Assembly (NCBI GenBank): GCA_038203095.1
Contig: JBBREH010000001.1
Coordinates: 431 to 64,430, forward strand
DNA length: 64,000 bases
Source of the DNA: Candidatus Doudnabacteria bacterium
GTDB taxonomy: Bacteria; Patescibacteriota; Doudnabacteria; UBA920
Direction of reading: 5' to 3'
This document shows positions 6,324 to 33,655 of the stretch, one piece after another. Position numbers and translations under genes: made by a program. A model generated the notes under the pieces. The model was not told the DNA's origin and ran no database searches. It saw nothing but the letters and a program-made list of their open reading frames with translations. Every line of letters begins with the position of its first letter. Within the stretch, counting starts at the first letter, position 1.

Positions 6324-6446
6324 AATTTTCAATTTTTAATTTCTAATTTTCAATGAATTTGAAATTTTGGAATTTATTAATTAAAACATTATAAATTGTT
6401 TAAAAATTGTAAATTGTAAATTAAAAATTAATTCTTTTTGAAATTT

Positions 6447-8397: not shown

Positions 8398-8520
8398 TAA
8401 CTACAAGTTAGCGCCGTAAAAGAATCTATTCAAACATTGAAAGATGATCTATCGCTGATAGAAGAGTTGGCGAATGAAAAATAATGGAATAATCTTTTAA
8501 ATAAGCCAAAAATTATATAA

Positions 8521-8563
8521 AAGACCAACTGGGCTTGACAAGTTGGTCTTTTTGGCGTATACT
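8521..8563 (+). promoter_or_regulatory. Hairpin with T-run overlapping a near-consensus sigma70 promoter
   Basis: AAGACCAACT...AAGTTGGTCTTTTT hairpin. TTGACA at 8535, 17-nt spacer, TATACT at 8558. Confidence 0.45.
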
Positions 8564-9342
8564 ACTTGGTCACGTAAAAAAACGTGTGTTTTGCATCTTA
8601 AAAATTCAATATTTAAGCAGTGTGTTTTTGCAGGAGAACATACGACTTTTATACATACCCTTACACCAATCTTCGCCAGAGCGATAAGCAATTACAGTAA
8701 AGTTGACCACATTATAAAGCGACTGATTATTTTAACGAGCATAAGTTTTGTTGGAGATTGGCGTGAGGGTATTATTCACAGATACGTAGAAGGGAACAGA
8801 TTGCACAGATAAATTATCTGCGTCATCTGTATTAATCTGCGCATCCGCGATCTCATGCTCCTAATTTCGTTAACCCGGATTGGGGGCGCTAGAGCCTGTT
8901 TAATAAATTGCTTTCGAAGCGAAATTTCAGAATTTTGAGCGAAAAACTTAAAGAAAAGCGAGGCGACACCAGGGCGTGTCGGTGAGCTTTGATGAAAGTT
9001 TTGCAGCCAAAATTCTGAAATTGCAGCCGAAATGAATTTATTGAACGGGCTCATACTAAAGCCGTATACTAAAGTACTAGAATAATATTACTATGATTCT
9101 CCTGTACTCAAGTCTACGGTTTTTAATTTTTACAAAAGTTTTGAGCTTGTATAGTTTTGCTTGTTTGCTACAAAATTAATTCTAAACATTTTCGTAGTCA
9201 TTTGTAGTGTGCTGATTTTGTAGATTTGTAGTTTGTTTCTGCAAACGTGGGCCATAAGGAGGGCAATTTATATTTTCCGTCCGAGACGGATAGGCCTTAT
9301 TACTTAGACCCACACTTGTGAAAATAAACATAGTTATTGATT

Positions 9343-9376
9343 CCCTCCCCTTGAGGGGGAGGGCTAGGGAGGGGTG
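9343..9376. repeat. G/C-rich palindromic element (intergenic copy)
   Basis: CCCTCCCC-TTGA-GGGGGAGGGCTAGGGAGGGGTG, reverse-complement match to 21724..21765. Confidence 0.65.
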
Positions 9377-9660
9377 AATTAAAGAAATCAAAGGGGGCAA
9401 CAAAGCCTCTTTTTCTTTGTCCCGTTAGCATTTATCGGCTATCGGCTAAAATTATTTTGGCTATGAGTTAAAGGCAATCTTCCGGAGCCTGTTTTATAAC
9501 CTCACCTGACCTCCCCTTTAAAAAGGAGAGGGATTAAAAACCGCCCTTGGGCGGATATTTTGTGAAAAAGAGTTTGGCGGTGTAAATATTATTATTTAAA
9601 TTGCCAGTCTCGTTTCCACAAAGCACGGTTTGTGGTAAGTGGGAACGGAAGGAGGCAGGA

Positions 9661-9882
9661 ATGCCTGTGGCAGTTTTTTCAATTGTAATCCTGCTTCTTT
9701 TGGCGGGATTTACCGCGGAGTTTTGCTGGCTCCGCAACCTCGTCCGGCAAAGTTTGCGGGATGAGGATATGGCAATCTTTTTTCGGATGGTCCAAGCGGC
9801 CATCCGCAACCTGCGGACTAACATCCGCATCTGGTGGGCTCTGCTCACCTCAATGCGCCCGCTTAAGGGCGGGTGGCAATAA
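9661..9882 (+). CDS. Hypothetical small membrane protein (73 aa)
   Basis: GGAGG RBS 6 nt upstream of the ATG; hydrophobic N-terminal helix. Confidence 0.3.
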   Translation: MPVAVFSIVILLLLAGFTAEFCWLRNLVRQSLRDEDMAIFFRMVQAAIRNLRTNIRIWWALLTSMRPLKGGWQ

Positions 9883-9896
9883 GGAGGGAAAAAATA

Positions 9897-10037
9897 ATGG
9901 AGTTTGAAATCTCCTACAGGTTGTCAAAATTCCTTTTTGCCATCGGGGTGAGTTTAGCCTCGGTCATAATTTTTGCGGCTTTCTTAGCTGCGTTAATTTG
10001 GCTGACAGGTGGCAAAAACAAAGGGGATGATAAGTAA
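9897..10037 (+). CDS. Hypothetical small membrane protein (46 aa), tandem to the previous ORF
   Basis: AGGAGG RBS at 9883; single TM helix. Below the ORF-track size cutoff. Confidence 0.25.
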   Translation: MEFEISYRLSKFLFAIGVSLASVIIFAAFLAALIWLTGGKNKGDDK

Positions 10038-10291
10038 AGGCAGACAGCAAAGTCTTTATACAAATCATCCCCCTCACACTTTTTTGTTTACTCAACCGCT
10101 TGCGAGGGTTAATTTAAATTTAGATTACAAGATCTAAACCTAAATTAACCTCCTGCCTCGCCGGCGGCTGAGTTGACGAAAACAGCGGTTTTAGCTATAA
10201 TTTGTGAGTTAAATTATTATTTAAATTTACCCTTCGACTCGCTCGCCTTAAAGGCGAGCTCGCTCAGGGTAAAATTTTCAAGGAAAATTTT

Positions 10292-10462
10292 ATGGGAGTT
10301 CCAAAAAAGCACAAAACTAAATCGGGTCGTAATCAACGCAGAAGCCATGACTCTTTAAAGGTTCGCAGTTTTGCCAAGTGCAAAAATTGCGAACAGCCGA
10401 CTATGCCACATTTGCCCTGCAAGAATTGCGGGTTTTATAAAGGACGTAAAGTTACGAAATAG
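10292..10462 (+). CDS. rpmF: 50S ribosomal protein L32
   Basis: MGVPKKHKTKSGRNQRRSHDSLK...CKNCG..KGRKV matches L32; 56 aa, below the ORF-track size cutoff. Confidence 0.8.
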   Translation: MGVPKKHKTKSGRNQRRSHDSLKVRSFAKCKNCEQPTMPHLPCKNCGFYKGRKVTK

Positions 10463-10627: not shown

Positions 10628-11062
10628 ATGGCCAACAGACATTTATCCCGCACCATTGCCATGCAGTCCCTCTTTGAGTGGGATTTTAACGGACGCAAGG
10701 AAGCTTTGAATGATATTGTAAAAAATCAGGTCAAGGAAGTTGCCGGGGCATCGGACGACACCGCTTTTATTTTTGAACTCGCCCACGGCGTGGAGAAAAA
10801 TTTAGTTGCCATAGATGAAATAATTGTTAAGCACGCGCCCGAATGGCCTATGAACCAAGTGCCACCCGTAGACAGGAATGTTTTGCGTTTGGGTGTTTAT
10901 GAATTAATGTTTTTAAAACAGGTTCCGCCTAAGGTGGCCATTAACGAAGCCGTGGAAATTGGTAAAACTTTTGGGGGTGAAAGTTCCGGCAAGTTCGTTA
11001 ACGGAGTGTTAGGGGCTTTGTATAAGGAGCTGGGGCTGGAGGAAGATAGGCAGGTCGGATGA
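10628..11062 (+). CDS. nusB: Transcription antitermination factor NusB
   Basis: [17 protein letters not shown] signature; 144 aa. Confidence 0.85.
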
Positions 11063-11300
11063 ATCGGAATATCGGATTGTTGCGTGGTTAGGGTATTATA
11101 ATTTTGTCATTATTGTTTTATTTCTTTCTTTTGCCCTTAATGTGGCATTTTTTTTTAAAATAGGCTATACTCATAATAGGTTTTGCACCAAAAACTATTA
11201 TTAAAGCGTAATAGTTATTAGGAGGCGCAGGTAAACAAAATAATTAAATGCTCGCCCATAGTGCCATAAGAGCATCAAGTATGGTGAGCAAAGGAGAAAT

Positions 11301-14173: not shown

Positions 14174-16294
14174 ATGAAACAAAAACTTTTTGCATTCATA
14201 GCAACGCTGGCTTTACTTTTTTCTTTGCTGCCTCTGTCAGCCGGTGCTTTAAGCTATCAGACAGTTAAAGATTCCCAAATAGGAATGGTGAAGGGGGATA
14301 CCACTGTAGCCTCTCCAAGAGACGGCCAGATAATCAGTTTAAACGGCACTGTTTATTTAGTTGACCTCGCCGGTCTTTATGGCTTCCCCAGCCTGACAGT
14401 GTTTAAATCTTGGGGATACCTGCCGGAGAAGATATTGCCAGCACTTCCAACAGAAAGCGCTTTGTCGATGCTCGATTTGGTGCCTATGCGCGATTCCGGC
14501 TGCAGCAACCCTCTGGCTCAAATACATGGTACTTGCGGTGGTTCTTCTCCCAGAATAGGCCAGTTAGTCAAAACCCAGGACAGAACCATTTACGTGGTTG
14601 TCCAAGGTGGCCTTTTAGGCATTCCAAGTTTAGAAGTTTTTAAATCTTGGGGCTTTGCTTCAAACCAAATTGCCTTTGCTAATTCCGCTGAATCTTCCCT
14701 GTCACAAATTGGTCTGGTACCCTCCCGTGACCCTGCCTGCAAGACGCCAATGGACCAGCTTAGTAGCCTCTGCGGGACTGCCGCTTCCGCCTCGCCCAGA
14801 ACCGGCCAGCTAATTACTAAAGGCAAGACCATTTATTTAGTCAGTCCAACTCCGAGTCTGCTGGCTTTTTCTAGCAAAGAAATTTTTTATTCTTGGGGCT
14901 TTACTTTTAAACAGATTATCCAAGCCAATAAAGCTGAGCTAGCCTTAGCCCAAACGAACCTGGTGCCAATGAAGGATCCTAACTGTCAAACTGCCTGGGA
15001 TCAGCTTGCCGGAAGTTGTATAGTTAGGCAGCAAACTTTAGACATATCCACAAATATGGGTCCCGCGATTGTTGGCCAAAAATATATTGCAAATTTTACT
15101 ATTGTTAATGGGGGCTTGCAGAATAGCAGTAGCTTAACAGGAACAGGGGCTCCAGCCGGATTGTCTTTTTCAAATTCCGTACGTCGTATGTATGCGTGTG
15201 ATCCTTTGCCGGATGGTACTGGTTGTGGTGGTTTGTTATCGGATCCAACTTACGCAATTTTGTCTGGGACTCCAACTCAAGCCGGTAGCTTTGTTTTGGA
15301 GTTAGTTGCTGTTTCTAATGGGCAAACGGTGAGCAAACACTTTACCCTGGTAGTCAATCCTACAAGCAGTACAGCACCTGTGATTTCATCGTTAAGTTTG
15401 ACCTCAGGAGCTGTTGGCGCAACTCTTATTATTACCGGCAGCGGGTTGAATGTATTTCAAAATGCCGGAAATGGAGATTCTGTGGGTTATAATATTTGGT
15501 TTACTAATGGCAATTACTCAATACCAATGAACGGGACAATTAGTAGCGATAATCTTATTAACGCCAAAATTCCTGAAACTCTGTGTCCCGGTAATGAGCG
15601 ATTTTCCTGCACCTCTTTAGACACAATTAAAGTTAGCCCGGGCGACTACTCCATTTATGTAAAAGGTGTTAATGGAAGTTCTCTGGTGACCAATAAGCTT
15701 ACTTATACAGTTACTTCCCCTCAAACTTCCACCTCCTGCGTTATTAACTCTTTTGCCGCCACATCCAGCACTATTAATGTCGGGCAGTCAACACAGCTAG
15801 CCTTTAGCCTGACTAACTGCACCGACTCAAATATTAAGATCCTTGACGATACCAATACTTACCTTGGTTTTAACTCTCCTTCTCCGGTAACCATTTCTCC
15901 AACTGCCACCAAGACTTATGTGCTTAGCGCTTCCAACGCGATCGGTGCTGCAACTAGTCAAAAAGTCACAGTTACGGTTACTGGTGTGCTGGCTTATTCT
16001 TGCCTTCCCAGTGGTGTTAGCTCGGACACACTTGTTTCGTCGGACATTGGCGCGTACAATACAGTGACTGTTTCGCAAAAGCTAAGTTCCTTGAGAGCCG
16101 TATGCCAAGGAGACAAACTGGTTGACGGCAGTGGCAAACCAATTTATTTTTATAATTTAATTGGTTGCTGGGGTAATCCGCCAAATAATTATTTGGAGTT
16201 AATGGCCAATCAATCTCAAGAAATTGCCAAATTGCAATTCCAATACAATGTTATTACCATACCTTGTAGTACTTCGCGCTTTCAAATTCAATAG
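14174..16294 (+). CDS. Large secreted repeat protein (cell-surface), hypothetical
   Basis: Signal peptide; three or four ~90-aa modules with a PSL.VFKSWGF/Y motif and paired Cys; T/S-rich C-terminal half. Modules are shared with the 30008..33655 protein. Confidence 0.6.
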   Translation: MKQKLFAFIATLALLFSLLPLSAGALSYQTVKDSQIGMVKGDTTVASPRDGQIISLNGTVYLVDLAGLYGFPSLTVFKSWGYLPEKILPALPTESALSMLDLVPMRDSGCSNPLAQIHGTCGGSSPRIGQLVKTQDRTIYVVVQGGLLGIPSLEVFKSWGFASNQIAFANSAESSLSQIGLVPSRDPACKTPMDQLSSLCGTAASASPRTGQLITKGKTIYLVSPTPSLLAFSSKEIFYSWGFTFKQIIQANKAELALAQTNLVPMKDPNCQTAWDQLAGSCIVRQQTLDISTNMGPAIVGQKYIANFTIVNGGLQNSSSLTGTGAPAGLSFSNSVRRMYACDPLPDGTGCGGLLSDPTYAILSGTPTQAGSFVLELVAVSNGQTVSKHFTLVVNPTSSTAPVISSLSLTSGAVGATLIITGSGLNVFQNAGNGDSVGYNIWFTNGNYSIPMNGTISSDNLINAKIPETLCPGNERFSCTSLDTIKVSPGDYSIYVKGVNGSSLVTNKLTYTVTSPQTSTSCVINSFAATSSTINVGQSTQLAFSLTNCTDSNIKILDDTNTYLGFNSPSPVTISPTATKTYVLSASNAIGAATSQKVTVTVTGVLAYSCLPSGVSSDTLVSSDIGAYNTVTVSQKLSSLRAVCQGDKLVDGSGKPIYFYNLIGCWGNPPNNYLELMANQSQEIAKLQFQYNVITIPCSTSRFQIQ

Positions 16295-20374: not shown

Positions 20375-22084
20375 ATGCAAAAAATGGTGATTAAGGTTGT
20401 AAAGATTATTATTGCCACAGCAATTTTTGCCTGGTTTGGTCTATTTTTGGCGCATAAAATAGATTTAACCACCGCGGATTTAGGCCGGCATATTGTTAAT
20501 GGATCGATAATTTTACACGGATCTTGGGCAGAGAAGTGGGCCGTGCTTAATACCAATTTTTATTCTTATACCTTACCTAATCAGCCATTTGTTAACCATC
20601 ACTGGGGGAGTGGAGTGGTTTTTTATTTAATTTTTTTGGCATTTGGATTTGCGGGGTTGTCTGTATTTTATGTAGGTTTGGGATTGGCGACGTTGTGGTT
20701 ATTTTTTGACGTAGCCAGAAGAGCGAGCAATTTTTGGATATCGTCTGCTGTGACAATTTCTCTAATCCCGTTGCTTTCGGCTCGCGCCGAAGTTCGTCCG
20801 GAAATGTTTACCTATTTTTTTACGGGAGTATTTTTTTGGGTGCTGTGGAAATCGCGGAATGACGCGGAACTTAACGCTGAAAGACGCGGAAGCTATAAGT
20901 TGCTCTGGATTTTGCCTATAATTGTTCTGCTTTGGGTTAATTTGCATATTGGTTTTGTGTTTGGGTTTTTGGTGCTGGGGGCGTTTGGATTGGAAGAAAT
21001 AATAAGGAATTTTCCATTCCGAATGCATCTGAGGAATCTGTTAAATCCAGGAACAGACAGATCCCTCCGTTCGCCCTCGGATGCACTCGGTCTTGGTTGG
21101 GATGGCAAATTACAAAAACTGATTATCATATCGGCGCTTTGCATTCTCGCAGGCTTAATAAATCCTTTTGGCTATAAACTGTTAATTTACCCCGCGCAAA
21201 TTTTTAAGAATTACGGTTATTTGATTGTAGAAAATCAATCCATCCGTTTTTTGGAGCGTCTAAATTTTGTTCAAGGCCAACACTTTTTACTTTTTAAACT
21301 GGCCGTGGCCGGGGTCATTATCAGTTTTATCGGAGTTGCCATAAGGTGGTGGAGAAAGATTGATATCACGATGTTGGTATTAGTCATAATCACAGCCTTT
21401 ATGGCTTATTTGGGAATTCGTAATTTTCCGTCTTTCGCGTTTTTCGCCTTGCCGGCCGCGGCCGGAAATTTGTATTTAATTAAACCGCAAAATCTTCATC
21501 GCGCGTACAAGTATTCGCTGTCAGTTATTCTTATTTTTATTGTAATTATTTGCGCCCAATCCCAGTACCAAACTTTTATGGAAATCAGGCCTGTTTTAGG
21601 TTTTGGTGTTTTGCCCGGTGTTAACCAGTCGGCTGATTTTTACAAGGCTAATAATCTTAAAGGTCCTATATTTAACAATTATGACGTTGGCGGATATTTA
21701 ATTTATCATTTATATCAAAAAAATCACCCCCTCCTAGCCTCCCCCATCAAGGGGGAGGAAGGGGGCACGGACACAAAGCTCTTTGTGGACAACAGGCCGG
21801 AAGCTTATACAACTGATTTTTTTGAAAATTCCTACAAACTGCCGCAAACGGACAGCCAAAAATGGCAGGAACTTGATAACCGGTATAATTTTAACTCCAT
21901 CTTTTTTTCCCACCGCGACTATACCCCGTGGGGTCAGGCGTTTTTAATTTCGCGAATACAGGATCCCACTTGGGCGCCGGTGTTTGTAGACACGTACAAT
22001 ATAATCTTTGTAAAAAGAAACCCACAGAACGCGGATTTAATTAAAAAATATGAACTACCAAAAAGTATGTTTGGCATTAAATAA
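20375..22084 (+). CDS. Polytopic membrane protein, candidate GT-C-type glycosyltransferase
   Basis: At least 12 predicted TM helices, immediately upstream of a Dpm1-like GT2. Contains two in-frame repeat-element insertions (21024..21091, 21724..21765). Confidence 0.45.
   Translation: MQKMVIKVVKIIIATAIFAWFGLFLAHKIDLTTADLGRHIVNGSIILHGSWAEKWAVLNTNFYSYTLPNQPFVNHHWGSGVVFYLIFLAFGFAGLSVFYVGLGLATLWLFFDVARRASNFWISSAVTISLIPLLSARAEVRPEMFTYFFTGVFFWVLWKSRNDAELNAERRGSYKLLWILPIIVLLWVNLHIGFVFGFLVLGAFGLEEIIRNFPFRMHLRNLLNPGTDRSLRSPSDALGLGWDGKLQKLIIISALCILAGLINPFGYKLLIYPAQIFKNYGYLIVENQSIRFLERLNFVQGQHFLLFKLAVAGVIISFIGVAIRWWRKIDITMLVLVIITAFMAYLGIRNFPSFAFFALPAAAGNLYLIKPQNLHRAYKYSLSVILIFIVIICAQSQYQTFMEIRPVLGFGVLPGVNQSADFYKANNLKGPIFNNYDVGGYLIYHLYQKNHPLLASPIKGEEGGTDTKLFVDNRPEAYTTDFFENSYKLPQTDSQKWQELDNRYNFNSIFFSHRDYTPWGQAFLISRIQDPTWAPVFVDTYNIIFVKRNPQNADLIKKYELPKSMFGIK
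21724..21765. repeat. G/C-rich palindromic element (in-frame inside the membrane-protein CDS, opposite orientation)
   Basis: CACCCCCTCCTAGCCTCCCCCATCAAGGGGGAGGAAGGGGG; encodes HPLLASPIKGEEGG. Confidence 0.65.
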
Positions 22085-22200: not shown

Positions 22201-22932
22201 ATGAAGCTGTCAATAATCATCCCAGCGCACAATGAAGAAAAAACCATTGCTCAGGTTTTGGAGCAGGTTTTAAAAGTGGATTTGGACGGGTGGGAGAAAG
22301 AGGTGGTTGTGGTGGATGACGGAAGTAGTGACGGGACAGGTACTATCCTGGAAAAGATTTGTAGCGTGCCCATTTATGGGCATTCCGGATCGCCGATAAA
22401 TCGGCACGCTACACTTATTAGCCACCCCACCAATCTCGGCAAAGGCGCGGCAATAAAATCGGCTTTGGTCAAAGCCACCGGGGATTACGTAATTATTCAG
22501 GACGCGGATTTGGAGTATAATCCGGGCGATATCGTTAATCTTTTATCGTTTATCCCTGACGATGGAAAACATCGGATTGCCATTTTTGGCAAGCGCGGTT
22601 ATAAAGCTTATCCGGAGCGCGGCTTCCACTATGTTATTGGCGCGTGGTTGCTTACTACTTTTTATAACTTGCTTTATGGCCAGCAACTTACGGATCTTTA
22701 CACTGGCTACAAATTAATCCCGACACGCATTTTTAAAGAACTAAACATTGAGTCCAACGGTTTTGAATTTGAAGCCGAAGTGGCTTGTAAGCTGGTGAAA
22801 AAAAATGTTATTATAAAGGAAGTAGAAATTAGTTATTTACCCAGAAACAAAGCTCAAGGTAAACATATTCGCTTTGTTGACGCCGTGAAAGGTTTTTGGA
22901 CTATTGTTAAAATTAGGCTATTTAAGAATTGA
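22201..22932 (+). CDS. GT2 glycosyltransferase (polyprenyl-phosphate sugar synthase/Dpm1-like)
   Basis: LSIIIPAHNEE...VVVVDDGSSDGT...DADLEYNP motifs. ATG at 22201. Carries a 53-nt repeat insertion at 22366..22418. Confidence 0.75.
   Translation: MKLSIIIPAHNEEKTIAQVLEQVLKVDLDGWEKEVVVVDDGSSDGTGTILEKICSVPIYGHSGSPINRHATLISHPTNLGKGAAIKSALVKATGDYVIIQDADLEYNPGDIVNLLSFIPDDGKHRIAIFGKRGYKAYPERGFHYVIGAWLLTTFYNLLYGQQLTDLYTGYKLIPTRIFKELNIESNGFEFEAEVACKLVKKNVIIKEVEISYLPRNKAQGKHIRFVDAVKGFWTIVKIRLFKN
22366..22418. repeat. 53-nt repeat element, copy 2 (in-frame inside the GT2 CDS)
   Basis: Matches 3009..3061; encodes VPIYGHSGSPINRHATL inserted before the GKG motif of the GT2. Confidence 0.7.
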
Positions 22933-23891
22933 TGCCAAACAGTGAGAGAATTTTAGTTGGAGGTGGCCCCAGCACATTGTTCGATGTTAGGGTTAAGGGC
23001 CGGGAAACAGAAACTTATCCTCCAGTTTTATTGACACAGGCAGAACAAGATTTTGCCGGGCAACTTTTTTTAGAATTGGAGAGCAAAGTAACTAGTTTTA
23101 GCGATTTTAAAGATTTCCCCAAAATTTTGATTGAGCAATTTCTTAAAGAATATACTGAGAAAGAGGAAGTGATTACAAAAATTTTTTTGCGGGAATTGGG
23201 CCTGATTGATTTTAAGTCGCTACTGTACCCCGGCACCAAGGAGAGTTTGCTTAAGGCCACTGAAATTTATGGCCCAAAATTAAAGAGTGTGCATTTATGG
23301 TCGCAGGGGGATGTAGATGCAACCGGCCATCAGACAAATAAAATTTTTAGAACCGGTTTAGGCGCGATTTTAAAGAGTTCCCGGGCGGCAAGTTTAAAGG
23401 ACAAACTTTTTTGGAATATCCGGACAGATAAATTTGCAAACATAGAAGGCATGCTTGATTCTGTTGCGGAGGGCCAGAAAGAGAAAGTGGTAGTAATTGA
23501 AGACAGTGTTGAGAATATTAAAAAAGTAACCAATATGTTGAAAGATAGGGCAACTGTTTTTCCGATTTGGGCTAATTACAGCCGCCGCGGCGCTAGTTTG
23601 CGAAAGAATAATCTTGAAGAATTTGAGCGACTAAAGAAGGAATATAACGGAATTGATTCTTTGGCGGAAATTTCTAGCAGAGAGAAAGAATTTGGGGAAG
23701 TATTCAAAGATGCCCATTTATTTTTGGATTTTGACGGGGTTTTAGCCAATAATGAAGAGCTTAGGCGGGTTAACGGTGAAGCTTTGCTCAAGGCATTTAT
23801 TATTGGACTTGGGGCGGGTAACCAAGAAAGGCAAAAATTAGTTGAAGAAATTCGGACAAAATTAAACTTGATCTCGCCTGAAAAAAATTAA
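22929..23891 (+). CDS. Hypothetical protein with HAD-like motifs in permuted order
   Basis: Motif-IV-like VVVIEDSVENI precedes motif-I-like FLDFDGVL near the C-terminus. Confidence 0.35.
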   Translation: MMPNSERILVGGGPSTLFDVRVKGRETETYPPVLLTQAEQDFAGQLFLELESKVTSFSDFKDFPKILIEQFLKEYTEKEEVITKIFLRELGLIDFKSLLYPGTKESLLKATEIYGPKLKSVHLWSQGDVDATGHQTNKIFRTGLGAILKSSRAASLKDKLFWNIRTDKFANIEGMLDSVAEGQKEKVVVIEDSVENIKKVTNMLKDRATVFPIWANYSRRGASLRKNNLEEFERLKKEYNGIDSLAEISSREKEFGEVFKDAHLFLDFDGVLANNEELRRVNGEALLKAFIIGLGAGNQERQKLVEEIRTKLNLISPEKN

Positions 23892-23905: not shown

Positions 23906-24898
23906 ATGGATAGAAATTTAGCTTTGGAATTTGTGCGGGTAACTGAGGCGGCGGCTATTGCAGCTAGTAAGTGGATAGGCAAGGGTGACGGTAAAAAGGC
24001 TGATGGCGCGGCAGTAGATGAAATGCGGTCGCGTTTTAATCAGATAGATTTTAAAGGCGTGGTGGTAATTGGTGAGGGGCAGAAAGACGAGGCGCCGGAA
24101 CTTTACACCGGGGAGAAGGTGGGACTTGGATGGAAAAACTCCAACCACCCCGGCCTTTCAGGCCACCCCTCCTTGAAAAGGAGGGGAGACTCCGTGTTTG
24201 ACCTTGCTGTTGACCCGCTTGAATGTACCGACAGCGTGGCTTATGGGCGTTATAATGCGATTGCGGTTATTGCGGCCGGAGCGCGGGGCTCGCTTTTAAG
24301 TGCGCCCGATACTTATATGGAAAAGTTGGCGGCCGGGCCAAAGGCTGCTAAAGTAATTAAAATGGGTGCGCCGGTTAAGCTAAACATTGAACGTACGGCC
24401 AAGGCTCTTGGTAAAAAAGTTGGGGATGTTACGGTGTGCATAATGGATAGAGAGCGCCATAAAGATTTAATTGGTCAGGTAAGAAAAATAGGCGCCAGAG
24501 TGCGGCTAATTACAGACGGCGACGTAGCGGGCGGGATAGCAACGTGTATGCCAGAATCGGGGATAGACCTGCTTATGGGCATTGGCGCTTCCGCAGAGGC
24601 AGTTTTGGCCGCCACAGCCATTAAAATTCTGGGTGGGCAAATATTCGCTCGCTTTAACCCAATGAAAGAAGCTCATCATCAATTGTTAAAAAAAGCCGGC
24701 CTTAACGACAAAAAAATTTACTCTGTAAACGACCTGGCCAAAGGTCAAACCCTAACCTTTACCGCCACAGGCATTATTGACGGCCCACTGCTTCAAGGGG
24801 TGAGGGTTGAGGGTAGCTACATTATAACCCATTCGATAGTAATCCGCGGTCAGAGCGGAACAATAAGATATATAACAACGCATCATAAGGAGAAATAG
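23906..24898 (+). CDS. glpX: Fructose-1,6-bisphosphatase class II (GlpX)
   Basis: Collinear with GlpX (LALEFVRVTEAAAIAA...GEGQKDEAPELYTGEKVG...DLAVDP). Carries an extra ~17 aa encoded by a palindromic element at 24149..24190. Confidence 0.85.
   Translation: MDRNLALEFVRVTEAAAIAASKWIGKGDGKKADGAAVDEMRSRFNQIDFKGVVVIGEGQKDEAPELYTGEKVGLGWKNSNHPGLSGHPSLKRRGDSVFDLAVDPLECTDSVAYGRYNAIAVIAAGARGSLLSAPDTYMEKLAAGPKAAKVIKMGAPVKLNIERTAKALGKKVGDVTVCIMDRERHKDLIGQVRKIGARVRLITDGDVAGGIATCMPESGIDLLMGIGASAEAVLAATAIKILGGQIFARFNPMKEAHHQLLKKAGLNDKKIYSVNDLAKGQTLTFTATGIIDGPLLQGVRVEGSYIITHSIVIRGQSGTIRYITTHHKEK
24149..24190. repeat. G/C-rich double hairpin inserted in-frame in glpX
   Basis: GGCC-TTTCA-GGCC followed by CCCCTCCTT-GAAA-AGGAGGGG; encodes PGLSGHPSLKRRGD, which is absent from E. 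coli GlpX at that point. Confidence 0.6.
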
Positions 24899-25345
24899 AA
24901 TTTTTAATTTTCAATTTGTAATTTTTAAACAATGTACAAATTTTATAATTATGAAGTATGATTTAGAGGAAAGAACGAGAAAATTTTCAAAAGAATTGAT
25001 TAGGTTTTTGAAAACGATTAAATCAAATTTAATAAACCAATCAATTATTTCTCAATTGGTTAGGTCTGCAACCAGTGTCGGAGCGAATTACTGTGAAGCG
25101 AATGCGGCTAGCTCTAAGAAAGATTTTACGAATAAAATATTTATTTGCAGGAAAGAAATTCAAGAAACAAAATATTGGTTTGAATTATTGGCAGAATCTA
25201 ATCCCGAAAGCAAAGATGAATTAAGAAAATTTTGGAAAGAAGCTCATGAATTGACGTTAATATTTAATAAAATATCAACATCTTTAAGATCAAAATTAGA
25301 AAATTGAAGAATTGTTTATAAATTAAAAATTGAAAATTAAAAATT
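24899..25345. mobile_element. IR-flanked cassette carrying a four-helix-bundle (IVS-type) protein gene, exactly between the glpX stop and the fba start
   Basis: 35-nt AT-rich inverted repeats at 24899..24933 and 25311..25345 (33/35 complementary). Confidence 0.55.
24951..25307 (+). CDS. Four-helix-bundle protein (23S rRNA intervening-sequence protein family)
   Basis: RSATSVGANYCEA...KDF..KI.ICRKEIQETKYWFELL motifs. Confidence 0.65.
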   Translation: MKYDLEERTRKFSKELIRFLKTIKSNLINQSIISQLVRSATSVGANYCEANAASSKKDFTNKIFICRKEIQETKYWFELLAESNPESKDELRKFWKEAHELTLIFNKISTSLRSKLEN

Positions 25346-27191: not shown

Positions 27192-27649
27192 GACAAGCAA
27201 ACAAGCAAACAAGGAGACAAATAAATAGCTTTAAAGATATATTTGCTTGGCAAAAGGCTCATTTATTAGCCTTGGAAGTTTACAGACTGTCAAAAAAATA
27301 TCCGAAAGACGAGTTATATGGATTGACCAGCCAAACTCGTAGAGCAGTGGTTTCTGTGGCTTCAAATTTGGTTGAAGGTTTTAAGCGAGCAGACAATAAG
27401 GAAGATTCACATTTTTGTAATATAGCTCAGGCTTCTTTAGAGGAAGTTAGATATCAGTTACTTCTGGCGAGAGATCTGGGTTATATTAGTAATCTTGAAT
27501 GTGAAAAGACGGAGCAATTATCCGAAGAAGTTTCTAAGTTGATTTATTTGTGGATGAAAAGTAAGAAATAAGTAAGCAAGGAGACAGGGAGTCAAGCAAT
27601 TAAGGATACAAGCTTAAATGCGGAGCGCTTGTTTGCTTGTTTGCTTGTC
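27192..27649. mobile_element. IR-flanked cassette carrying a second four-helix-bundle protein gene, between the LOG gene and tal
   Basis: Perfect 22-nt inverted repeats GACAAGCAAACAAGCAAACAAG at 27192..27213 and 27628..27649. Confidence 0.6.
27272..27571 (+). CDS. Four-helix-bundle protein (23S rRNA IVS protein family), start uncertain
   Basis: YGLTSQTRRAVVSVASNLVEG motif. The family-typical N-terminus (FAWQKAH) extends in frame upstream to 27182 with no ATG/GTG; only the TTG at 27272 or an ATA is available. Confidence 0.6.
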   Translation: MEVYRLSKKYPKDELYGLTSQTRRAVVSVASNLVEGFKRADNKEDSHFCNIAQASLEEVRYQLLLARDLGYISNLECEKTEQLSEEVSKLIYLWMKSKK

Positions 27650-27668
27650 CCCCTTAACATACTTTCCT

Positions 27669-28505
27669 ATGACAACAAAAATCTTTCTCGACTCAGGCGA
27701 CCCCGTTGAAACCAAACAAGCTTTAAAGTTGCTTGGGTTTTTGGACGGGCAAACTACTAATCCGTCGTTAATTGCTAAAAATCCGGCCACCAGCGGAAAA
27801 AAATTTACTGAAGATGAACTGCTAAAATTTTACCGTGGTATAGTTACAGAAGTCTCGTCGCTCATTCCAAAAGGCAGTGTTTCAATAGAAGTTTATGCGG
27901 ACAAAAATATGTTGGCAAATGAAATGCTGGCGCAGGGTAGGGAGTTTAATACTTGGATTCCGAACGCCCATATTAAATATCCGACTACGACCGAAGGTTT
28001 AAAGGCAGCTGAAATAAGCGTGAAAGAGGGAATGAGGGTAAATATGACGCTAGTTTTTAGTCAGGAGCAGGCTGCTGCAGTTTATGCCGCAACAAAAGGA
28101 GCATTGCGCGGACAAGTTTATTTGTCGCCATTCGTGGGTAGGCTGGATGACCGTGGGGAGAATGGCATGGATTTTGTTTCTAACGTCGTAAAAATGTATG
28201 AACAAGGCGACGGACATGTGGAAATTTTGTCAGCTTCAATTAGGTCAAGCGAACATATGAGAAAGGCGATTGAACAGGGTAGTGATATTATTACGGCACC
28301 GCTAAAAGTTTTAAAAGAGTGGGTAGAGGCGGGATCTTCCTCCTCCCCTCGCCAGGGGAGGATGCCCATAGGACAGGAGAGTTTGCTGCCAATTCTTTAT
28401 CAGGATATCAGCTTAAACAAGCCCTGGCAGGAATATAATTTACAGCATAATTTAACTAATGCCGGTTTGGAAAAATTTACAAGTGACTGGAATTCCTTAT
28501 TATAA
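27669..28505 (+). CDS. tal: Transaldolase (Fsa/TalC-type)
   Basis: IFLDSGDP...TTNPSL motifs. ATG at 27669. C-terminal region carries an extra segment that includes the palindromic element at 28342..28361. Confidence 0.8.
   Translation: MTTKIFLDSGDPVETKQALKLLGFLDGQTTNPSLIAKNPATSGKKFTEDELLKFYRGIVTEVSSLIPKGSVSIEVYADKNMLANEMLAQGREFNTWIPNAHIKYPTTTEGLKAAEISVKEGMRVNMTLVFSQEQAAAVYAATKGALRGQVYLSPFVGRLDDRGENGMDFVSNVVKMYEQGDGHVEILSASIRSSEHMRKAIEQGSDIITAPLKVLKEWVEAGSSSSPRQGRMPIGQESLLPILYQDISLNKPWQEYNLQHNLTNAGLEKFTSDWNSLL
28342..28361. repeat. G/C-rich hairpin inserted in-frame in the transaldolase gene
   Basis: CCTCCCC-TCGCCA-GGGGAGG within a C-terminal extra segment (SSSSPRQGRMPIG). Confidence 0.55.
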
Positions 28506-28513
28506 CATAAAAT

Positions 28514-29248
28514 CCACTTGGAAGAGGGGACACCTCTTCCAAGTGGGACTAATCTATTAATAAAGCTTGAATTTGTTTTTGTTTTTCTATTAGAGGACCG
28601 CTTTCTTCTACAAATTTTTTATAATCGTTAACCGTCTTAAATTTATCCATAATAACTCGCTTATCACAAAGGCCATCGTTTCTTTTTTCAATGTAATCCG
28701 AATAACTACTAAAGGCATATTCATCCGGAGTTTTTACAATCCCGGCCACAGTTGGGTTTTGATGAATATAGGCCGAAAGCCAAGTTAAATAAGATTCATT
28801 TTCTACCGGTATGGCTTTGAATGCTCCTTGAAATAAATGGCCCACATGGTCGTATTTTTTTTGAAAGTAGACTGCGTAGCCGGTGCATAGTTTTTGGATC
28901 AGTTTGCTAATTTTAATTTCGTTGTTTTGTCTTATTAATAAATGAAAATGGTTAGGCATAAGACAATAGCAGATTAAAGAAAATGCATCTGTAGGCAATT
29001 GCTTTCTTTTGTATTTTATATCAAGAGAGCTTGGGCTAACTTCCAATTCATTTTCTGGGAATAAATTTTCTCTTAATCGATGAATAAAAATTCCATAATC
29101 TTGGGGATCAAAAAAAATATCATTTTTACCATTACCTCGATTAAAGACATGATAATAATTTCCCGCAGTAAAAGTTTTGTAATCACGATAACGCATAATC
29201 ATATTATACCATAAAATTAACTTGGAAGAGGGGACACCTCTTCCAGTT
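28514..29248. mobile_element. IS200/IS605-like or RAYT-like unit: Y1 transposase flanked by near-identical palindromic hairpins
   Basis: CCACTTGGAAGAGG-GGACA-CCTCTTCCAAGTGG at 28514..28547 and AACTTGGAAGAGG-GGACA-CCTCTTCCAGTT at 29219..29248; 40 nt from tRNA-Pro. Confidence 0.6.
28549..29202 (-). CDS. HUH-Y1 transposase (IS200-like / REP-associated tyrosine transposase-like)
   Basis: YHVFNRGN..IFFDPQDY; HUH motif in LMPNHFHLLI; downstream Tyr (YIHQNP). Probable start at M68 of the track ORF, because the upstream part overlaps tRNA-Pro. Confidence 0.65.
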   Translation of the reverse strand: MIMRYRDYKTFTAGNYYHVFNRGNGKNDIFFDPQDYGIFIHRLRENLFPENELEVSPSSLDIKYKRKQLPTDAFSLICYCLMPNHFHLLIRQNNEIKISKLIQKLCTGYAVYFQKKYDHVGHLFQGAFKAIPVENESYLTWLSAYIHQNPTVAGIVKTPDEYAFSSYSDYIEKRNDGLCDKRVIMDKFKTVNDYKKFVEESGPLIEKQKQIQALLID

Positions 29249-29288
29249 GTGCAAGTTGGTTGGAAATGGTACACTTTATCAAGTATTT

Positions 29289-29362
29289 CGGGCTGTAGTA
29301 TACCGGTAGTACGTCTGCTTTGGGAGCAGATAGACTGGGTTCGATTCCCAGCAGCCCGACCA
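29289..29362 (+). tRNA. tRNA-Pro (anticodon TGG), CCA encoded
   Basis: Acceptor CGGGCTG/CAGCCCG; anticodon stem TCTGC/GCAGA with loop TTTGGGA; T-arm CTGGG-TTCGATT-CCCAG. Confidence 0.8.
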
Positions 29363-30007: not shown

Positions 30008-33000
30008 ATGCAAAATTCTGTCGCAAAGAAAATCTTTGCAGTAGGATCCGCGGTTGCTATGACATTGTCATTGGTAGTCCCGTTTGCGGCTCAAGCCGCG
30101 GCGCACGCTACCGGTACCAATGTCTCCAGCTCTGACGGCACTGTGTGGATGGTTACATCTACCGGTACCCGCCGCGCCTACACTTCCGCCGGCGCCTTCC
30201 TCTCCTATGGATTTAACTCCTGGAGCCAGGTTGTTCCCGCCAGCGCCGAAGATCTAGCCTTACCGGTTGATTCTGCCGGATTCATCCCCCCGCAAGACGG
30301 CACCATCTTTTGCGCCACTGCCACTAAAGGCTCTGACGTCAAAGGTGAATGTGCTTTAATTTCCGGCGGTATGAAGCGCTCATTCACATCAGCCTCGGTC
30401 TTTACCGGCCTTGGTTTTAGCTTCGCCCGCGCCGTAAACGGAGATTCCTCCTTTATGAGCAAAGGCGCCAATGTTGACAACAGCACCATGGCTCATTTGC
30501 CTGGCGTACTTGTTAACAACAACGGCACCGTCCAGTTAGTCGGCTCAAACGGCTTGCTAGGCGTACCGGATTTAGCCACCTTCAATTCCTGGGGCTATTC
30601 CTTTGCCAACGTTGTCCCGGCTAACGCCGCCGACAAAGCCATGACCCAAACCGGCGTTATGGTTGCCCGTTTGGCCGGACAATTGTCCCCAAGCTGGACA
30701 CCAGCCCAACCATGCACCAGCAACTGCACTCCTCCTCCTGCTAACGGTGGTGGTTTGAGTGTTTCTTTGAGCTCTGCTACTCCTGCCGCTTCTAACGTAG
30801 CTGCCGGAGCTGCCTTTATTCCTTTTACTGCCATCAACTTTACCGCAGCCGGCAACCCGGTTGTAGTAACCGGCGTAAAAGTTAAAAGAGGCGGACTTGG
30901 CGCCGACAGCAACCTGAACAATATGTATTTGTTCAACGGTGCTCAAATGTTAGCTCAGTCTTCTTCTGTTCAAAATGGCGTAGTCACTTATTCCAACAGC
31001 GCAGGTTTGTTCACGGTTCCCGCGAACAGCACCTTAACTATTTGGGTTAAGGGTGACTTGTCTTCCGGCACATCCAGCGGTTTAACCTATACATTTAGTG
31101 TTAACGCCGCTTCGGACATTACCTCCAATGCTTCCAGCGTTAGCGGTTCTTTCCCAATTACCGGTAATATGGTTACCAGCGCAACTGTTGTCTCGCCTTC
31201 TTTGGCGAGTTTGACCGTTGCCGGTATTTCCACAGGTGGCACGGTTAACGCCGGCACCAACAGCTTCTTGGCCGCCCAATATTCTTTACAGTCTGCCAAC
31301 AGCTCTGTAAAAGTAAACGGTATTACATTAACTTTTGTCGGCTCCGCGGCGCTTTCCAGCATTGCGAACGTCAAGTTAATGGCCAACGGCACACAGGTCG
31401 GTTCTACTATGACCAGCCTCTCCAGCACAGTTGTATTCTTTGATTTGTCTTCGGCTCCTTTAATGGTGCCAACAGGCAACACTGTCAACTTGCAGGTAAT
31501 TGCCGATATTACCGGTAGCGCCAACAGAACAGGCAACCTGTTCTCCATTCAGCGCAACTATGATATCCAAAGCTATGACACTACCTACAACGTAGGTATT
31601 TTGTCCTCCAGCACTTTCCCTGTAAATGGCACCAGCTTCTCGATTAATGCCGGTACCTTAACGGTTAACCGCGATGTCACCAGCCGCACCACTCAAATTG
31701 CTCCTGGTCAGACAAACCTCACTTTGGCTACATTTTCATTCCAGGCCAACGGTGAAGACGTAAAAATCTTGAACTTGCCGTTTAAAATTGCCGGCAACGG
31801 TTCCGGTAAATTGGATATCAACAATATCAAATTGGTTGATAACGCGGGTTTTGGTCTAGGCACATCTGATACCACCGAAAAGAATGTGGTAGCTACTCCC
31901 TACACCAACAGCTCTGGCGCGGTTAATGCTCCAGGTTTCCAACAGACCTCTAACTTTAATTATGTCATTCCTGCCAATACCACTCGCTTAATTAGCATTG
32001 TGGCCGACATAATTTCTAGCACTACTTCTACAACTGCTACCGCTTCTTTGACCGGTGGTTCTTCCAACGCTCAAGGCGTAGTTTCAGTTGCCAGTATTAC
32101 TACTCCTGCAGTTTCCGGTAACACTTTGACTGTTAGCACTACTTTGCTTACAGCCACTTTGAGTTCCGGTATGGCCAACCCAAGCTTGGTTGTTCCTAAC
32201 TCCCAGTCGACCAAAGTCGGTTCCTTTGCGATAAACGCAGGTGGAGCTGATTCTGTAGATATTACCACTGTGCAGGTTACTACCGGCGCGACTTCTGTTG
32301 CAGCCAACTTTAACCAATTGGCAGTTATGGTAGGTACTACTCAAGTTGGGCAAACTCAAACCACTTTGAGCAACAGCACTGCCTATAGCTTTAGCCCTGC
32401 TACGGCCATTTCTATTCCGGCCGGCGGTAGCGTGACCATAGATGTCTACGCTGGCGTTCAAAGCGGAGCTGAAACTTCGGTGAACCAAAATGTTGTGTCG
32501 TTGACAGGTCTTACTTCTCAACTACACACCAGCGGTTCCACTATTACCTTCCCGGGTCTCGTTACCGGACAGACCGTTAAGGTTACCGGCAACGGCGCTG
32601 TAACCATTACTCAAAGCCCGAACACTCCGGTGTCCAGGCAATTGGCAATGAACCAGGCTGGCCAAATCTTGGGCGTTATCAAGATTGGTGAAACTACAGG
32701 CAACGAAGCTGCCACTTTGACAGATATTACCATCACCGCCACCGGCGTTGCTGGTACTACCCTAAACGGTACTGCGTCAGCCTCTTTGAACTCCTTGCTT
32801 AACTTCACAATCTCCGCTGCCGACAATGCGGGTACAGCTATTGGTTCGCCTGTTACCAGGTCTTCTTGGACTTCAGGCACCGACGGTACCGGCACCGTGG
32901 TTTACACCGTTACCTTCAACAACGTAAGCTTAGCTATCCCGGCGGGACCTGGTAAGTATATGAACTTGACGGTTAAAGCTGACTTAAACAGCTTTACCAA

Positions 33001-33655
33001 CGGCGCGGCTTCCAACTCAATGTGGACTGTCGGTTTGGCCTCGGCTTCTGCCGCGACCATCCGCGGAACCTCTTCCACCGCAACCATTACTCCGACTTTA
33101 ACCGCCAACGCTACTTCTAATACCACAACGGTTCTTAGAACTACTATTGGCGTAGCCTCGGTTGGCTCAATTGCCAGCCCGGTTAGCGTAAGCGTTAGCC
33201 CAACCGGTGTTCCGAGCGCGACGGAAAATATGGCCATCTTTGCGGTTACTGCTTCTAACAGCGGTGACGCAATTGTGCAAAGCATTACTTTGCAACAAGG
33301 TGGTACAGCCCCAACAGGTGTTGCTGTAAACTACACAGTGTTTGACGCCGCTCAAGGCCTCTCCAGCGCTGTGAGTGTAGCTACTGCCATTACTGGTTCT
33401 ACCGCAACTGCGGTTACCCTAAACCTAAACTCCGCTGCCACTGCTGGCGGTGTGACTATTGGCGCAGGTCAAACCAAGTACTTGGTAGTCCAGGCAAACA
33501 CAACCAACTTTAACACCAACAGTGGCAACAGCTCCAAGTCTTACAGCTTGCAAGCTACCACTTGGCGCTTTAGCGACGGTACAACCGGCGTAGGCCCTTC
33601 TAGCGATGCTAGCTCGGTCACCGCAGTTACCACCGGCGCTTCCCGCACATACTAA
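30008..33655 (+). CDS. Very large secreted surface protein (candidate S-layer/adhesin), T/S/A/G/N-rich
   Basis: Signal peptide with AQAAAHA cleavage motif. N-terminal ..F.SWGY modules as in the 14174 protein. About 1000 aa of low-complexity beta-rich repeats. Minus-strand ORFs inside it are composition artefacts. Confidence 0.7.
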   Translation: MQNSVAKKIFAVGSAVAMTLSLVVPFAAQAAAHATGTNVSSSDGTVWMVTSTGTRRAYTSAGAFLSYGFNSWSQVVPASAEDLALPVDSAGFIPPQDGTIFCATATKGSDVKGECALISGGMKRSFTSASVFTGLGFSFARAVNGDSSFMSKGANVDNSTMAHLPGVLVNNNGTVQLVGSNGLLGVPDLATFNSWGYSFANVVPANAADKAMTQTGVMVARLAGQLSPSWTPAQPCTSNCTPPPANGGGLSVSLSSATPAASNVAAGAAFIPFTAINFTAAGNPVVVTGVKVKRGGLGADSNLNNMYLFNGAQMLAQSSSVQNGVVTYSNSAGLFTVPANSTLTIWVKGDLSSGTSSGLTYTFSVNAASDITSNASSVSGSFPITGNMVTSATVVSPSLASLTVAGISTGGTVNAGTNSFLAAQYSLQSANSSVKVNGITLTFVGSAALSSIANVKLMANGTQVGSTMTSLSSTVVFFDLSSAPLMVPTGNTVNLQVIADITGSANRTGNLFSIQRNYDIQSYDTTYNVGILSSSTFPVNGTSFSINAGTLTVNRDVTSRTTQIAPGQTNLTLATFSFQANGEDVKILNLPFKIAGNGSGKLDINNIKLVDNAGFGLGTSDTTEKNVVATPYTNSSGAVNAPGFQQTSNFNYVIPANTTRLISIVADIISSTTSTTATASLTGGSSNAQGVVSVASITTPAVSGNTLTVSTTLLTATLSSGMANPSLVVPNSQSTKVGSFAINAGGADSVDITTVQVTTGATSVAANFNQLAVMVGTTQVGQTQTTLSNSTAYSFSPATAISIPAGGSVTIDVYAGVQSGAETSVNQNVVSLTGLTSQLHTSGSTITFPGLVTGQTVKVTGNGAVTITQSPNTPVSRQLAMNQAGQILGVIKIGETTGNEAATLTDITITATGVAGTTLNGTASASLNSLLNFTISAADNAGTAIGSPVTRSSWTSGTDGTGTVVYTVTFNNVSLAIPAGPGKYMNLTVKADLNSFTNGAASNSMWTVGLASASAATIRGTSSTATITPTLTANATSNTTTVLRTTIGVASVGSIASPVSVSVSPTGVPSATENMAIFAVTASNSGDAIVQSITLQQGGTAPTGVAVNYTVFDAAQGLSSAVSVATAITGSTATAVTLNLNSAATAGGVTIGAGQTKYLVVQANTTNFNTNSGNSSKSYSLQATTWRFSDGTTGVGPSSDASSVTAVTTGASRTY

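Follow-up and report, generated by a model that had tools for sequence, protein, structure and literature searches.

A dispersed double-hairpin repeat, probably mobile, lies in frame within glpX of a Candidatus Doudnabacteria bacterium

The glpX gene and its insert

In a 64,000-nucleotide stretch of a Candidatus Doudnabacteria contig (the window, to which all coordinates refer), the glpX gene, coding for a class II fructose-1,6-bisphosphatase, carries in frame a 56-base repeat composed of two hairpins. Loci and contigs compared with the window are given L-numbers and homologous GlpX proteins P-numbers. The host gene and the parts of the repeat are the following.

23906-24898, + strand: glpX, class II fructose-1,6-bisphosphatase of 330 amino acids, host of the insert (PF03320, TIGR00330 and relatives in the Protein Data Bank, PDB)
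24135-24190, + strand: double-hairpin repeat, "Type A" copy, 56 bases (covariance model, 78.5 bits, E 2e-22)
24135-24151, + strand: conserved 5' box AAAACTCCAACCACCCC (alignment of copies)
24152-24164, + strand: hairpin 1, GGCC-TTTCA-GGCC, variable module (paired changes between copies)
24166-24186, + strand: hairpin 2, CCCCTCCTT-GAA-AAGGAGGGG, conserved module (pattern and fold)
24187-24190, + strand: tail AGAC after hairpin 2 (sequence)

The open reading frame (ORF) at 23906-24898 matches PF03320 in Pfam (E 1e-119), exceeds the equivalog cut-off of the NCBIfam model TIGR00330 (319.5 bits against 259.3) and has PDB relatives matching at 4e-81. The motifs GEGQKDEAP and DLAVDPLECT, on either side of the insert, are conserved; the DLAVDP motif that adjoins it is presumably the metal-binding one of GlpX structures. 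The first-pass annotation had counted about 17 extra residues at this place, and the comparisons bear this out: the alignment to M. tuberculosis GlpX (6ayy) gives some 14-17 additional residues between GEKVG.G and D.AVDP, and relative to insert-less relatives of 312 amino acids the excess is exactly 18 amino acids or 54 nucleotides (residues WKNSNHPGLSGHPSLKRR), the net added coding DNA lying at about 24131-24184.

Among 152 glpX loci from many phyla, the corresponding loop counts 6-9 residues in 143, and its maximum outside the Patescibacteria group discussed here is 12. Scans of genome and metagenome contig collections with GlpX returned mostly insert-less or distant loci, and the loop was compared in a close set made of the query and its 120 nearest homologs (71-87% identical and, where named, from Patescibacteria or Doudnabacteria). 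A 7-residue loop (TGKGPAV and similar) is present in 67 of these 121 proteins, and 53 have loops of 11-35 residues, among which the peptide types NHP..GHPSLKRRG, PSP..(K/R)GRG, ADKSARY, LRSGH and LRQG(F/Y)xGQ can be distinguished; many of the inserts start with GW(K/R). All 11 GlpX inserts whose DNA was examined fold as hairpins, that of L168 weakly (-8.8 kcal/mol). The opposite picture, that of a segment common to all close orthologs and without a hairpin at the DNA level, is thus contradicted on both counts.

In a neighbour-joining tree computed from GlpX after masking of the loop, carriers and non-carriers are intermingled, and each of the five Type A carriers has a closer relative without Type A than any fellow carrier. 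The query, for instance, is 88% identical to the insert-less P0009, as against 76-87% to the other Type A carriers. Filled and empty loops also face each other within the closely related protein pairs P0103/P0112 (96% identical) and P0068/P0118 (92%). Taken together, the close pairs and the scattered carriers indicate, at the level of sequence comparison, that the short GlpX loop is ancestral and has been enlarged many times since.

The AlphaFold model of the window GlpX has a mean predicted local distance difference test (pLDDT) score of 85.7. The insert is modelled without secondary structure and is the lowest-confidence part of the protein, with residues 80-89 below 50, and the flanking strand and DLAVDP are modelled normally. 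Such a model agrees with the insert being a surface loop that does no harm. The copy probably reads as a disordered loop of 18 residues rich in Pro, Ser, Gly, His, Lys and Arg that leaves the enzyme intact, and we infer that it is translated, yielding the peptide NSNHPGLSGHPSLK.

Each unit of the repeat consists, in this order, of the box AAACTCCAACCACCCC, hairpin 1, a single A, hairpin 2 in the form CCCCTCCTT-NAA-AAGGAGGGG, and an A-rich tail A(G/A)(A/T). The two tight hairpins claimed at first reading are present at 24152-24164 and 24166-24186. The CCCCTCC..GGAGGGG pattern has 0.00 expected occurrences in shuffled sequence, and a 63-nucleotide segment folds with a z-score of -3.2 as RNA and of -4.1 as DNA. 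Seven Patescibacteria copies were aligned and used to build the covariance model. CTCCAACCACCCCG is unchanged in all seven, and the core of the box, AACCACCCC, is common to the Patescibacteria copies and to those of viral contigs. Hairpin 1 differs in sequence in each of the seven copies, with its pairing always kept; its arms are GGCC/GGCC, GGCCC/GGGCC, GCCCC/GGGGC, GACCCGC/GCGGGTC, GGCCCGAT/ATCGGGCC, GTCCCGCC/GGCGGGAC and GTCTGC/GCAGAC, and two-sided changes affect six of its eight pairs. Over the seven-copy alignment 95.5% of the cells are paired and seven pairs have changed on both sides, which none of 500 shuffles matched; slid registers of the alignment are likewise far from the observed pairing. 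The element can be read openly in four of six frames, as seen by direct reading of the sequence. The observation that all copies have their C-rich arm first on the + strand was discarded as an orientation signal, such a palindrome reading trivially alike on both strands.

The compensatory changes that maintain both hairpins would also suit a functional structured RNA within the mRNA, in which a Shine-Dalgarno (SD)-like AAGGAGG would be sequestered by an anti-SD-like CCUCCUU, and which would be kept in place by selection and act on the speed of translation, the stability of the mRNA or a binding protein. The 3' arm is indeed a perfect SD-like sequence, and one copy, that of L163, has one pair in the form T.G, a pairing possible in RNA only. 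However, G.T mismatches are not in excess of A.C mismatches in genic GC hairpins (2 against 6, a tiny and noisy sample), no Rfam family matches the element and most orthologs are devoid of it. These points, together with the orientations and genes in which other copies are found (see below), make a structured RNA an unlikely explanation of the glpX segment.

Copies in the window, in related Patescibacteria and in viral contigs

The window contains ten GC-rich hairpins with a C-rich 5' arm, a type of which 18 of 20 shuffles contained none (range 0-4). Besides the glpX copy, the covariance model recognises weaker relatives at four other sites, in agreement with the first-pass annotation, which had seen the same type of hairpin in both intergenic and genic positions.

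9339-9382, - strand: intergenic member, reverse complement TTCACCCCTCC-CTAG-CCCTCCCC-CTCAA-GGGGAGGG-AAT (covariance model, fold)
9509-9531, + strand: intergenic hairpin of the hairpin-2 type, CCTCCCCTT-TAAA-AAGGAGAGG (covariance model, hairpin search)
21718-21765, + strand: diverged member, TCACCCCCTCC-TAG-CCTCCCCC-ATCAA-GGGGGAGG-AAGGGGG, in frame in the membrane-protein ORF 20375-22084
28337-28385, - strand: complete, diverged double hairpin in reverse orientation (covariance model 13.2 bits, E 0.02; fold)

The copy at 21718-21765 encodes about 16 extra residues (NHPLLASPIKGEEGGTD), a segment missing in the orthologs of L169 and L164. The copy at 28337-28385 is in frame in the transaldolase ORF 27618-28505 (SSSSPRQGRMPIG); the ortholog of L002 is without the insert, and in L001 the place is taken by a different copy. 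All window copies are single, with no inverted pairs within the window. The two intergenic members lie in a region of about 1.9 kb (8400-10290) between groEL (6438-8099) and rpmF (10292-10462) that has no credible ORF and no Rfam or tRNA match and that holds several GC-rich hairpins.

The Type A element occupies the glpX site in five assemblies, namely the window, L001, L163, L164 and L165. We attach practically no weight to an artefact (misassembly or chimera) of a metagenome-assembled genome, since four other contigs, drawn from three or more different samples (ENA, JGI and NCBI records), have the element at this very site and the reading frame is intact. L001 and L164 also carry Type A in the transketolase gene (tkt), at two different positions, and L164 has in addition a reversed variant. 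The tails are genome-specific, the copies of L001 ending in GGGGAGA and those of L164 in GGGGAATG, as would be expected if copies descend from, or homogenise with, other copies in the same genome. Diverged members were found in the tkt, fba, transaldolase (TAL) and glycosyltransferase (GT2) genes of relatives; as many as six loops of the transketolase carry such inserts in L001, L164, L166 and L169, against none in L002. In 302 kb of Patescibacteria loci, 23 of the 29 strict copies of the hairpin-2 type are intragenic, counting ORFs of at least 150 amino acids. The general design is that of a C-rich box (CAACC.. or CCACC..CCTCC) followed by either TAG/TAA or a variable hairpin, then a polypyrimidine/polypurine hairpin and an A-rich tail. 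As a control, the model was run on 1.21 Mb taken from 99 glpX loci outside Patescibacteria, with zero matches.

These data bear on the possibility that the hairpins are born locally, by recurrent mutation at a fragile loop (template switching, snap-back synthesis or quasi-palindrome correction), with nothing moving. Many hairpin types share the one GlpX loop, hairpin arms are for the most part perfect (of the genic hairpins, 33 are without mismatch and 24 have one), as if one arm had been copied from the other, and the filled sites are not clean insertions. However, a non-palindromic box of 13-14 nucleotides together with an identical 21-nucleotide hairpin recurs at unlinked sites, in other genomes and in phage contigs, and local synthesis therefore cannot explain the element; nor does it fit the absence of copies from 1.2 Mb of other bacteria. 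We regard a local origin as highly improbable.

Across the five genomes, the box and hairpin 2 are 82-97% identical, whereas the four-fold-type synonymous sites of glpX are only 31-43% identical and thus saturated. Judged from these identities, a neutral, vertically inherited loop cannot give such conservation. The excess over synonymous sites would also be in keeping with a structured RNA; at odds with one is that the element occurs in unrelated genes, is read in two frames and lies either way round with respect to the host gene, as seen from the transaldolase copy and the reversed copy in tkt of L164. The same reading frames bear on a further alternative, that of an ordinary lineage-specific protein loop with a role at the protein level and incidental hairpins in its DNA. 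The position next to DLAVDP, the preserved frame in every carrier and the GW(K/R) start of many inserts could be expected of such a loop. Yet the nucleotides are kept where the peptide is not, Type A reading as SNHP..HPSLKRRG in glpX and as TPTTP..PLLEKEG in tkt, and this while synonymous sites elsewhere in glpX are saturated; close relatives are without the loop, and the insert is modelled as disordered. We consider this protein-level explanation very improbable indeed.

Other families of GC-rich palindromes lie in frame in the relatives, for example a tandem CCCAGAAGGCAGCCTTCTGGG, a tandem TCCGCC-N4-GGCGGA and CCGCCTTCGCCAAGGCTTCGGCGG (sites L169 7069-7110, L168 11140-11170, L170 13254-13290 and L001 10499-10584). 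CCGCCTTCGCCAAGGCTTCGGCGG encodes LRQGFGGQ and recurs in TAL genes and, as judged by the peptide, in the GlpX proteins P0080 and P0116.

Viral contigs proved to be another source of copies. A scan for hairpin 2 gave two loci, and the gapped pattern AACCACCCC-N(8-30)-CACCCCTCC gave 112 matches in 94 stretches of 35-73% GC. A calibration with the 15-mer AACTCCAACCACCCC, which had 59 matches in viral contigs and none with the full architecture, as expected by chance, implies that about 20 of the 112 gapped-pattern matches are due to chance; about 70 of them show the full architecture by eye. The covariance model, trained on Patescibacteria copies only, returned 100 matches at E < 1e-4 in 870 kb of viral stretches. 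Over 95 distinct viral copies the pairing amounts to 93.5%, and 188 double-change cells were observed where 71 were expected. The CCCCUCC/GGAGGGG core is constant in more than 90 of the 95, and a G-N-C clamp is retained at the base of hairpin 1, single positions elsewhere carrying GC, CG, AU and UA.

Inverted pairs of copies are common in the viral contigs (L171, L172, L214, L228, L183, L256 and others). In L172, a Mu-like prophage of 66% GC, such a pair lies at 10970-11082 between MuA-like and MuB-like genes, and L171 has another at 839-964, arranged like the inverted pairs known as REPINs; L171 and L172 have 66-67% GC. Three intergenic copies lie on the same strand in a fragment of a tail module, the sheath protein of which has its nearest match in a Clostridium phage, and some viral copies are inside long ORFs. 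Clustering of the proteins encoded near viral copies yielded only terminase, portal and similar phage proteins. Nothing in the phage and plasmid collections matched the inverted pair by blastn, possibly on account of low-complexity masking. With respect to a role as RNA, GGAGGGG is found 5-25 nucleotides ahead of an ATG in several phage contigs, as an SD-like function would have it, but inverted pairs are frequent and, between co-directional genes, 11 viral copies run along the genes and 14 opposite to them.

Proposed mobility and a candidate transposase

[quoted passage not shown] Mobility of the REP/MITE type is suggested by the dispersal of the copies, their two orientations, the inverted pairs, the presence or absence at orthologous sites, the genome-specific subtypes, and the box that stands beside hairpins with conserved pairing; that the copying occurs by transposition, and that an enzyme takes part in it, we infer. 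The element would consist of a C-rich box serving for recognition, a clamp hairpin that varies and a polypyrimidine/polypurine hairpin that is conserved. Copies would be made within a genome, likely as folded single-stranded DNA and through an enzyme acting in trans, the leading candidate being a hairpin-binding HUH/Y1 transposase, and would land between and inside genes. Those surviving inside genes would be the ones that keep the frame, are free of stops and lie in tolerant surface loops. The GlpX loop between GEKVG and DLAVDP would be either a permissive place or a preferred target, struck repeatedly across lineages, and homologous recombination could also have spread insert-bearing alleles.

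A gene for an enzyme of this kind is located about the transaldolase region of the window.

28549-29196, - strand: Y1 HUH transposase (IS200-like, and like REP-associated tyrosine transposases, RAYTs) of 215 amino acids (PF01797, E 3.5e-11)
28514-28546 and 29221-29247, on the same strand: hairpin repeat TTGGAAGAGGGGACACCTCTTCCA flanking the Y1 gene (sequence)

The only NCBIfam match of the Y1 protein is the REP-associated tyrosine transposase model NF047646, at 46 bits and thus under its cut-off of 80. In L167, L168 and L169 the gene holds the same syntenic position, with the transaldolase gene and tRNA-Pro (in the window at 29289-29362) as its neighbours, and is 68-73% identical, an arrangement that fits a domesticated, vertically inherited enzyme as far as gene order and sequence can tell. 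The flanking repeats have the form ATTATACCATAAAAT-N7-TGGAAGAGGGGACACCTCTTCCA (ATTATACCATAAAAT..TTGGAAGAGGGGACACCTCTTCCA; region 28495-29260), with further copies elsewhere in L168 and L169, and contain GGGGWSAS, the motif of repeats beside "TIRYT" transposase genes (PMC3733652). We propose the Y1 protein as a candidate mobiliser, its link to the element being hypothetical.

Several observations weigh against mobility of the REP/MITE type or against this enzyme. No transposition event itself was observed. Neither terminal inverted repeats nor a clean target-site duplication could be defined, the filled and empty pairs being too diverged for boundaries, and in P0103/P0112 and P0068/P0118 the filled sites are not plain insertions, as about four host codons differ too. 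An imperfect direct repeat, AACTCCA...AACTGCA, brackets several copies and is identical at different sites; it may belong to the element or to the host, or have arisen by duplication. For repeats of the REP type, it is unusual that 9-nucleotide boxes should be conserved between hosts with GC contents of 35-73%. As for the enzyme, the only transposase of the window is flanked by a hairpin unlike the glpX element, its gene is absent from the syntenic place in the Type A carriers L001 and L164, and tblastn found no Y1 relative in 94 viral loci. Finally, recurrence at the same loop combined with strong conservation could result from selection on the structure in place or from an allele spread by recombination.

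A wider reading is possible, although we would not rely on it: that of a new super-family of ultra-small double-hairpin elements present across phyla, possibly spread by phages, that would have colonised genes on the scale of Rickettsia palindromic elements (RPEs) or more in one Patescibacteria clade. Its design would be AACCACCCC, a variable hairpin with a G-N-C clamp, CCCCTCC/GGAGGGG and AAT, setting it apart from the REPs tagged by GTAG or CGTC, and its hosts would comprise Patescibacteria, a probable Clostridia-type prophage and Mu-like prophages of high-GC hosts. The same enzyme loops would have been rebuilt repeatedly, and the boxes would mark the recognition site of a widely distributed enzyme acting on hairpin DNA. 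Being shared with phage contigs of very different hosts, the boxes would, if the element is confirmed, offer a handle, in the form of the covariance model and of defined oligonucleotides, for finding the mobilising enzyme.

The surroundings of glpX show some further features. Two small genes for four-helix-bundle proteins (23S rRNA intervening-sequence protein, TIGR02436, bAvd-like) lie at 24951-25307 and 27272-27571, both inside the sugar-metabolism cluster; in relatives they are in other intergenic slots of this cluster, as if mobile. AT-rich heptamer-like repeats at 24899-24950 adjoin one of them, and heptamer tandem repeats also flank element copies in L169 and in the viral contigs L197 and L245. 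Transketolase is encoded upstream of glpX, adjoining it in L001, L164 and L166 and with one small gene in between in L002 and L169. In the window no transketolase is found upstream of glpX, the slot being held by a 320-amino-acid ORF (22929-23891) without Pfam match. An ORF of 706 amino acids at 14174-16294, considered as the transketolase, was ruled out by alignment and has three internal repeats (..FKSWG(Y/F)..). At 30008-33655, a 1215-amino-acid ORF without Pfam match sits in a stretch with 49-50% GC and a negative GC skew, against about 40% GC and a positive skew elsewhere; ORFs of similar size (~1160-1220 amino acids) follow the transaldolase region in L001, L002, L166, L169 and L170.

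Comparison with known repeat systems

Searches of Rfam 15 gave no match at gathering score in the window, only chance-level ones at 24080-24240, and none in five element-rich viral loci. No description of such elements was found in the literature on Patescibacteria, or Candidate Phyla Radiation (CPR), or under the sequence strings, a coverage that is incomplete and leaves novelty unproven. The element was set against the known classes of dispersed palindromes.

The closest in behaviour are the RPEs, to which the first-pass annotation had likened the insert. The families of these elements, RPE-1 to RPE-10, are about 100-150 bp long, with a conserved peptide encoded by each (Ogata et al. 2000 and 2002, from the summary in PMC10969869). 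Like them, the element is a palindrome dispersed in a small genome, in frame and free of stops in unrelated housekeeping genes, where it adds peptides at the surface, with other copies in intergenic regions. The resemblance claimed is thus upheld by behaviour, without membership in an RPE family: the element has about 56 nucleotides instead of ~100-150 bp, appears unrelated in sequence and is divided into box, variable hairpin and conserved hairpin modules. Moreover, it occurs in Patescibacteria and in phage and prophage contigs of varied GC instead of one genus, and one protein loop has been struck repeatedly. GlpX and the insert peptide, searched with E up to 10 against NCBIfam, which presumably includes the RPE peptide models (TIGRFAMs RPE domains), matched no model but glpX.

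REPs are mostly extragenic, but intragenic GTAG- and CGTC-tagged REPs have been described, among them R. conorii RPE-4 and RPE-6 and cases in Opitutus terrae and Thauera; the intragenic units or dimers encode 20-30 residues and were judged neutral as they are in loops (Di Nocera et al. 2013, PMC3733652). The element resembles the GTAG/CGTC REPs in being a short stem-loop repeat (their stems having 5-13 bp), in forming subfamilies with complementary stem changes and inverted dimers, and in the location of some copies in ORFs. It has no GTAG or CGTC tag, however, its ends being AACCACCCC and GGAGGGGA(A/G)(T/A) in all aligned copies; its own conserved tags are AACCACCCC and GGAGGGGAAT, one at either side. 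It also differs from REPs in being mainly intragenic in the Patescibacteria loci (23 of 29 copies). The REPIN-RAYT system (PMC3116915, PMC3337134) is comparable in its hairpin repeats, often in inverted pairs (for the element, in viral contigs, its copies in the window being single), in its within-genome populations of sequences and, on the side of the enzyme, in the single-copy, apparently vertically inherited and hairpin-flanked Y1 transposase of the window. This Y1 gene is flanked by TTGGAAGAGGGGACACCTCTTCCA and not by the glpX element, however, and its product scores 46 bits where the RAYT model demands 80.

The double-hairpin design, for its part, is shared with the GC clusters and double-hairpin elements of fungal mitochondria, small GC-rich repeats in AT-richer genomes that also occur in coding regions and that, in some yeasts, are bypassed by the ribosome. 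These are organellar and unrelated in sequence. The element copies are all in frame, which argues for translation rather than bypassing.

If confirmed, the element would extend selfish DNA inside protein-coding genes from Rickettsia to the CPR, another group of small-genome, host-dependent bacteria, where most copies appear to lie within genes. It would provide a natural experiment on insertion-tolerant protein loops, the GlpX loop being enlarged, by several types of insert, in 44% of the 121 close homologs, and would partly explain the length variation of Patescibacteria housekeeping proteins, in which such inserts can mislead alignments and phylogenies. With regard to the systems above, the general phenomenon is already known; what the analysis adds is the definition of the element and its family, the evidence for repeated strikes at one enzyme loop, the intragenic scale in this clade and the unexpected occurrence of this architecture in phage contigs of unrelated hosts.

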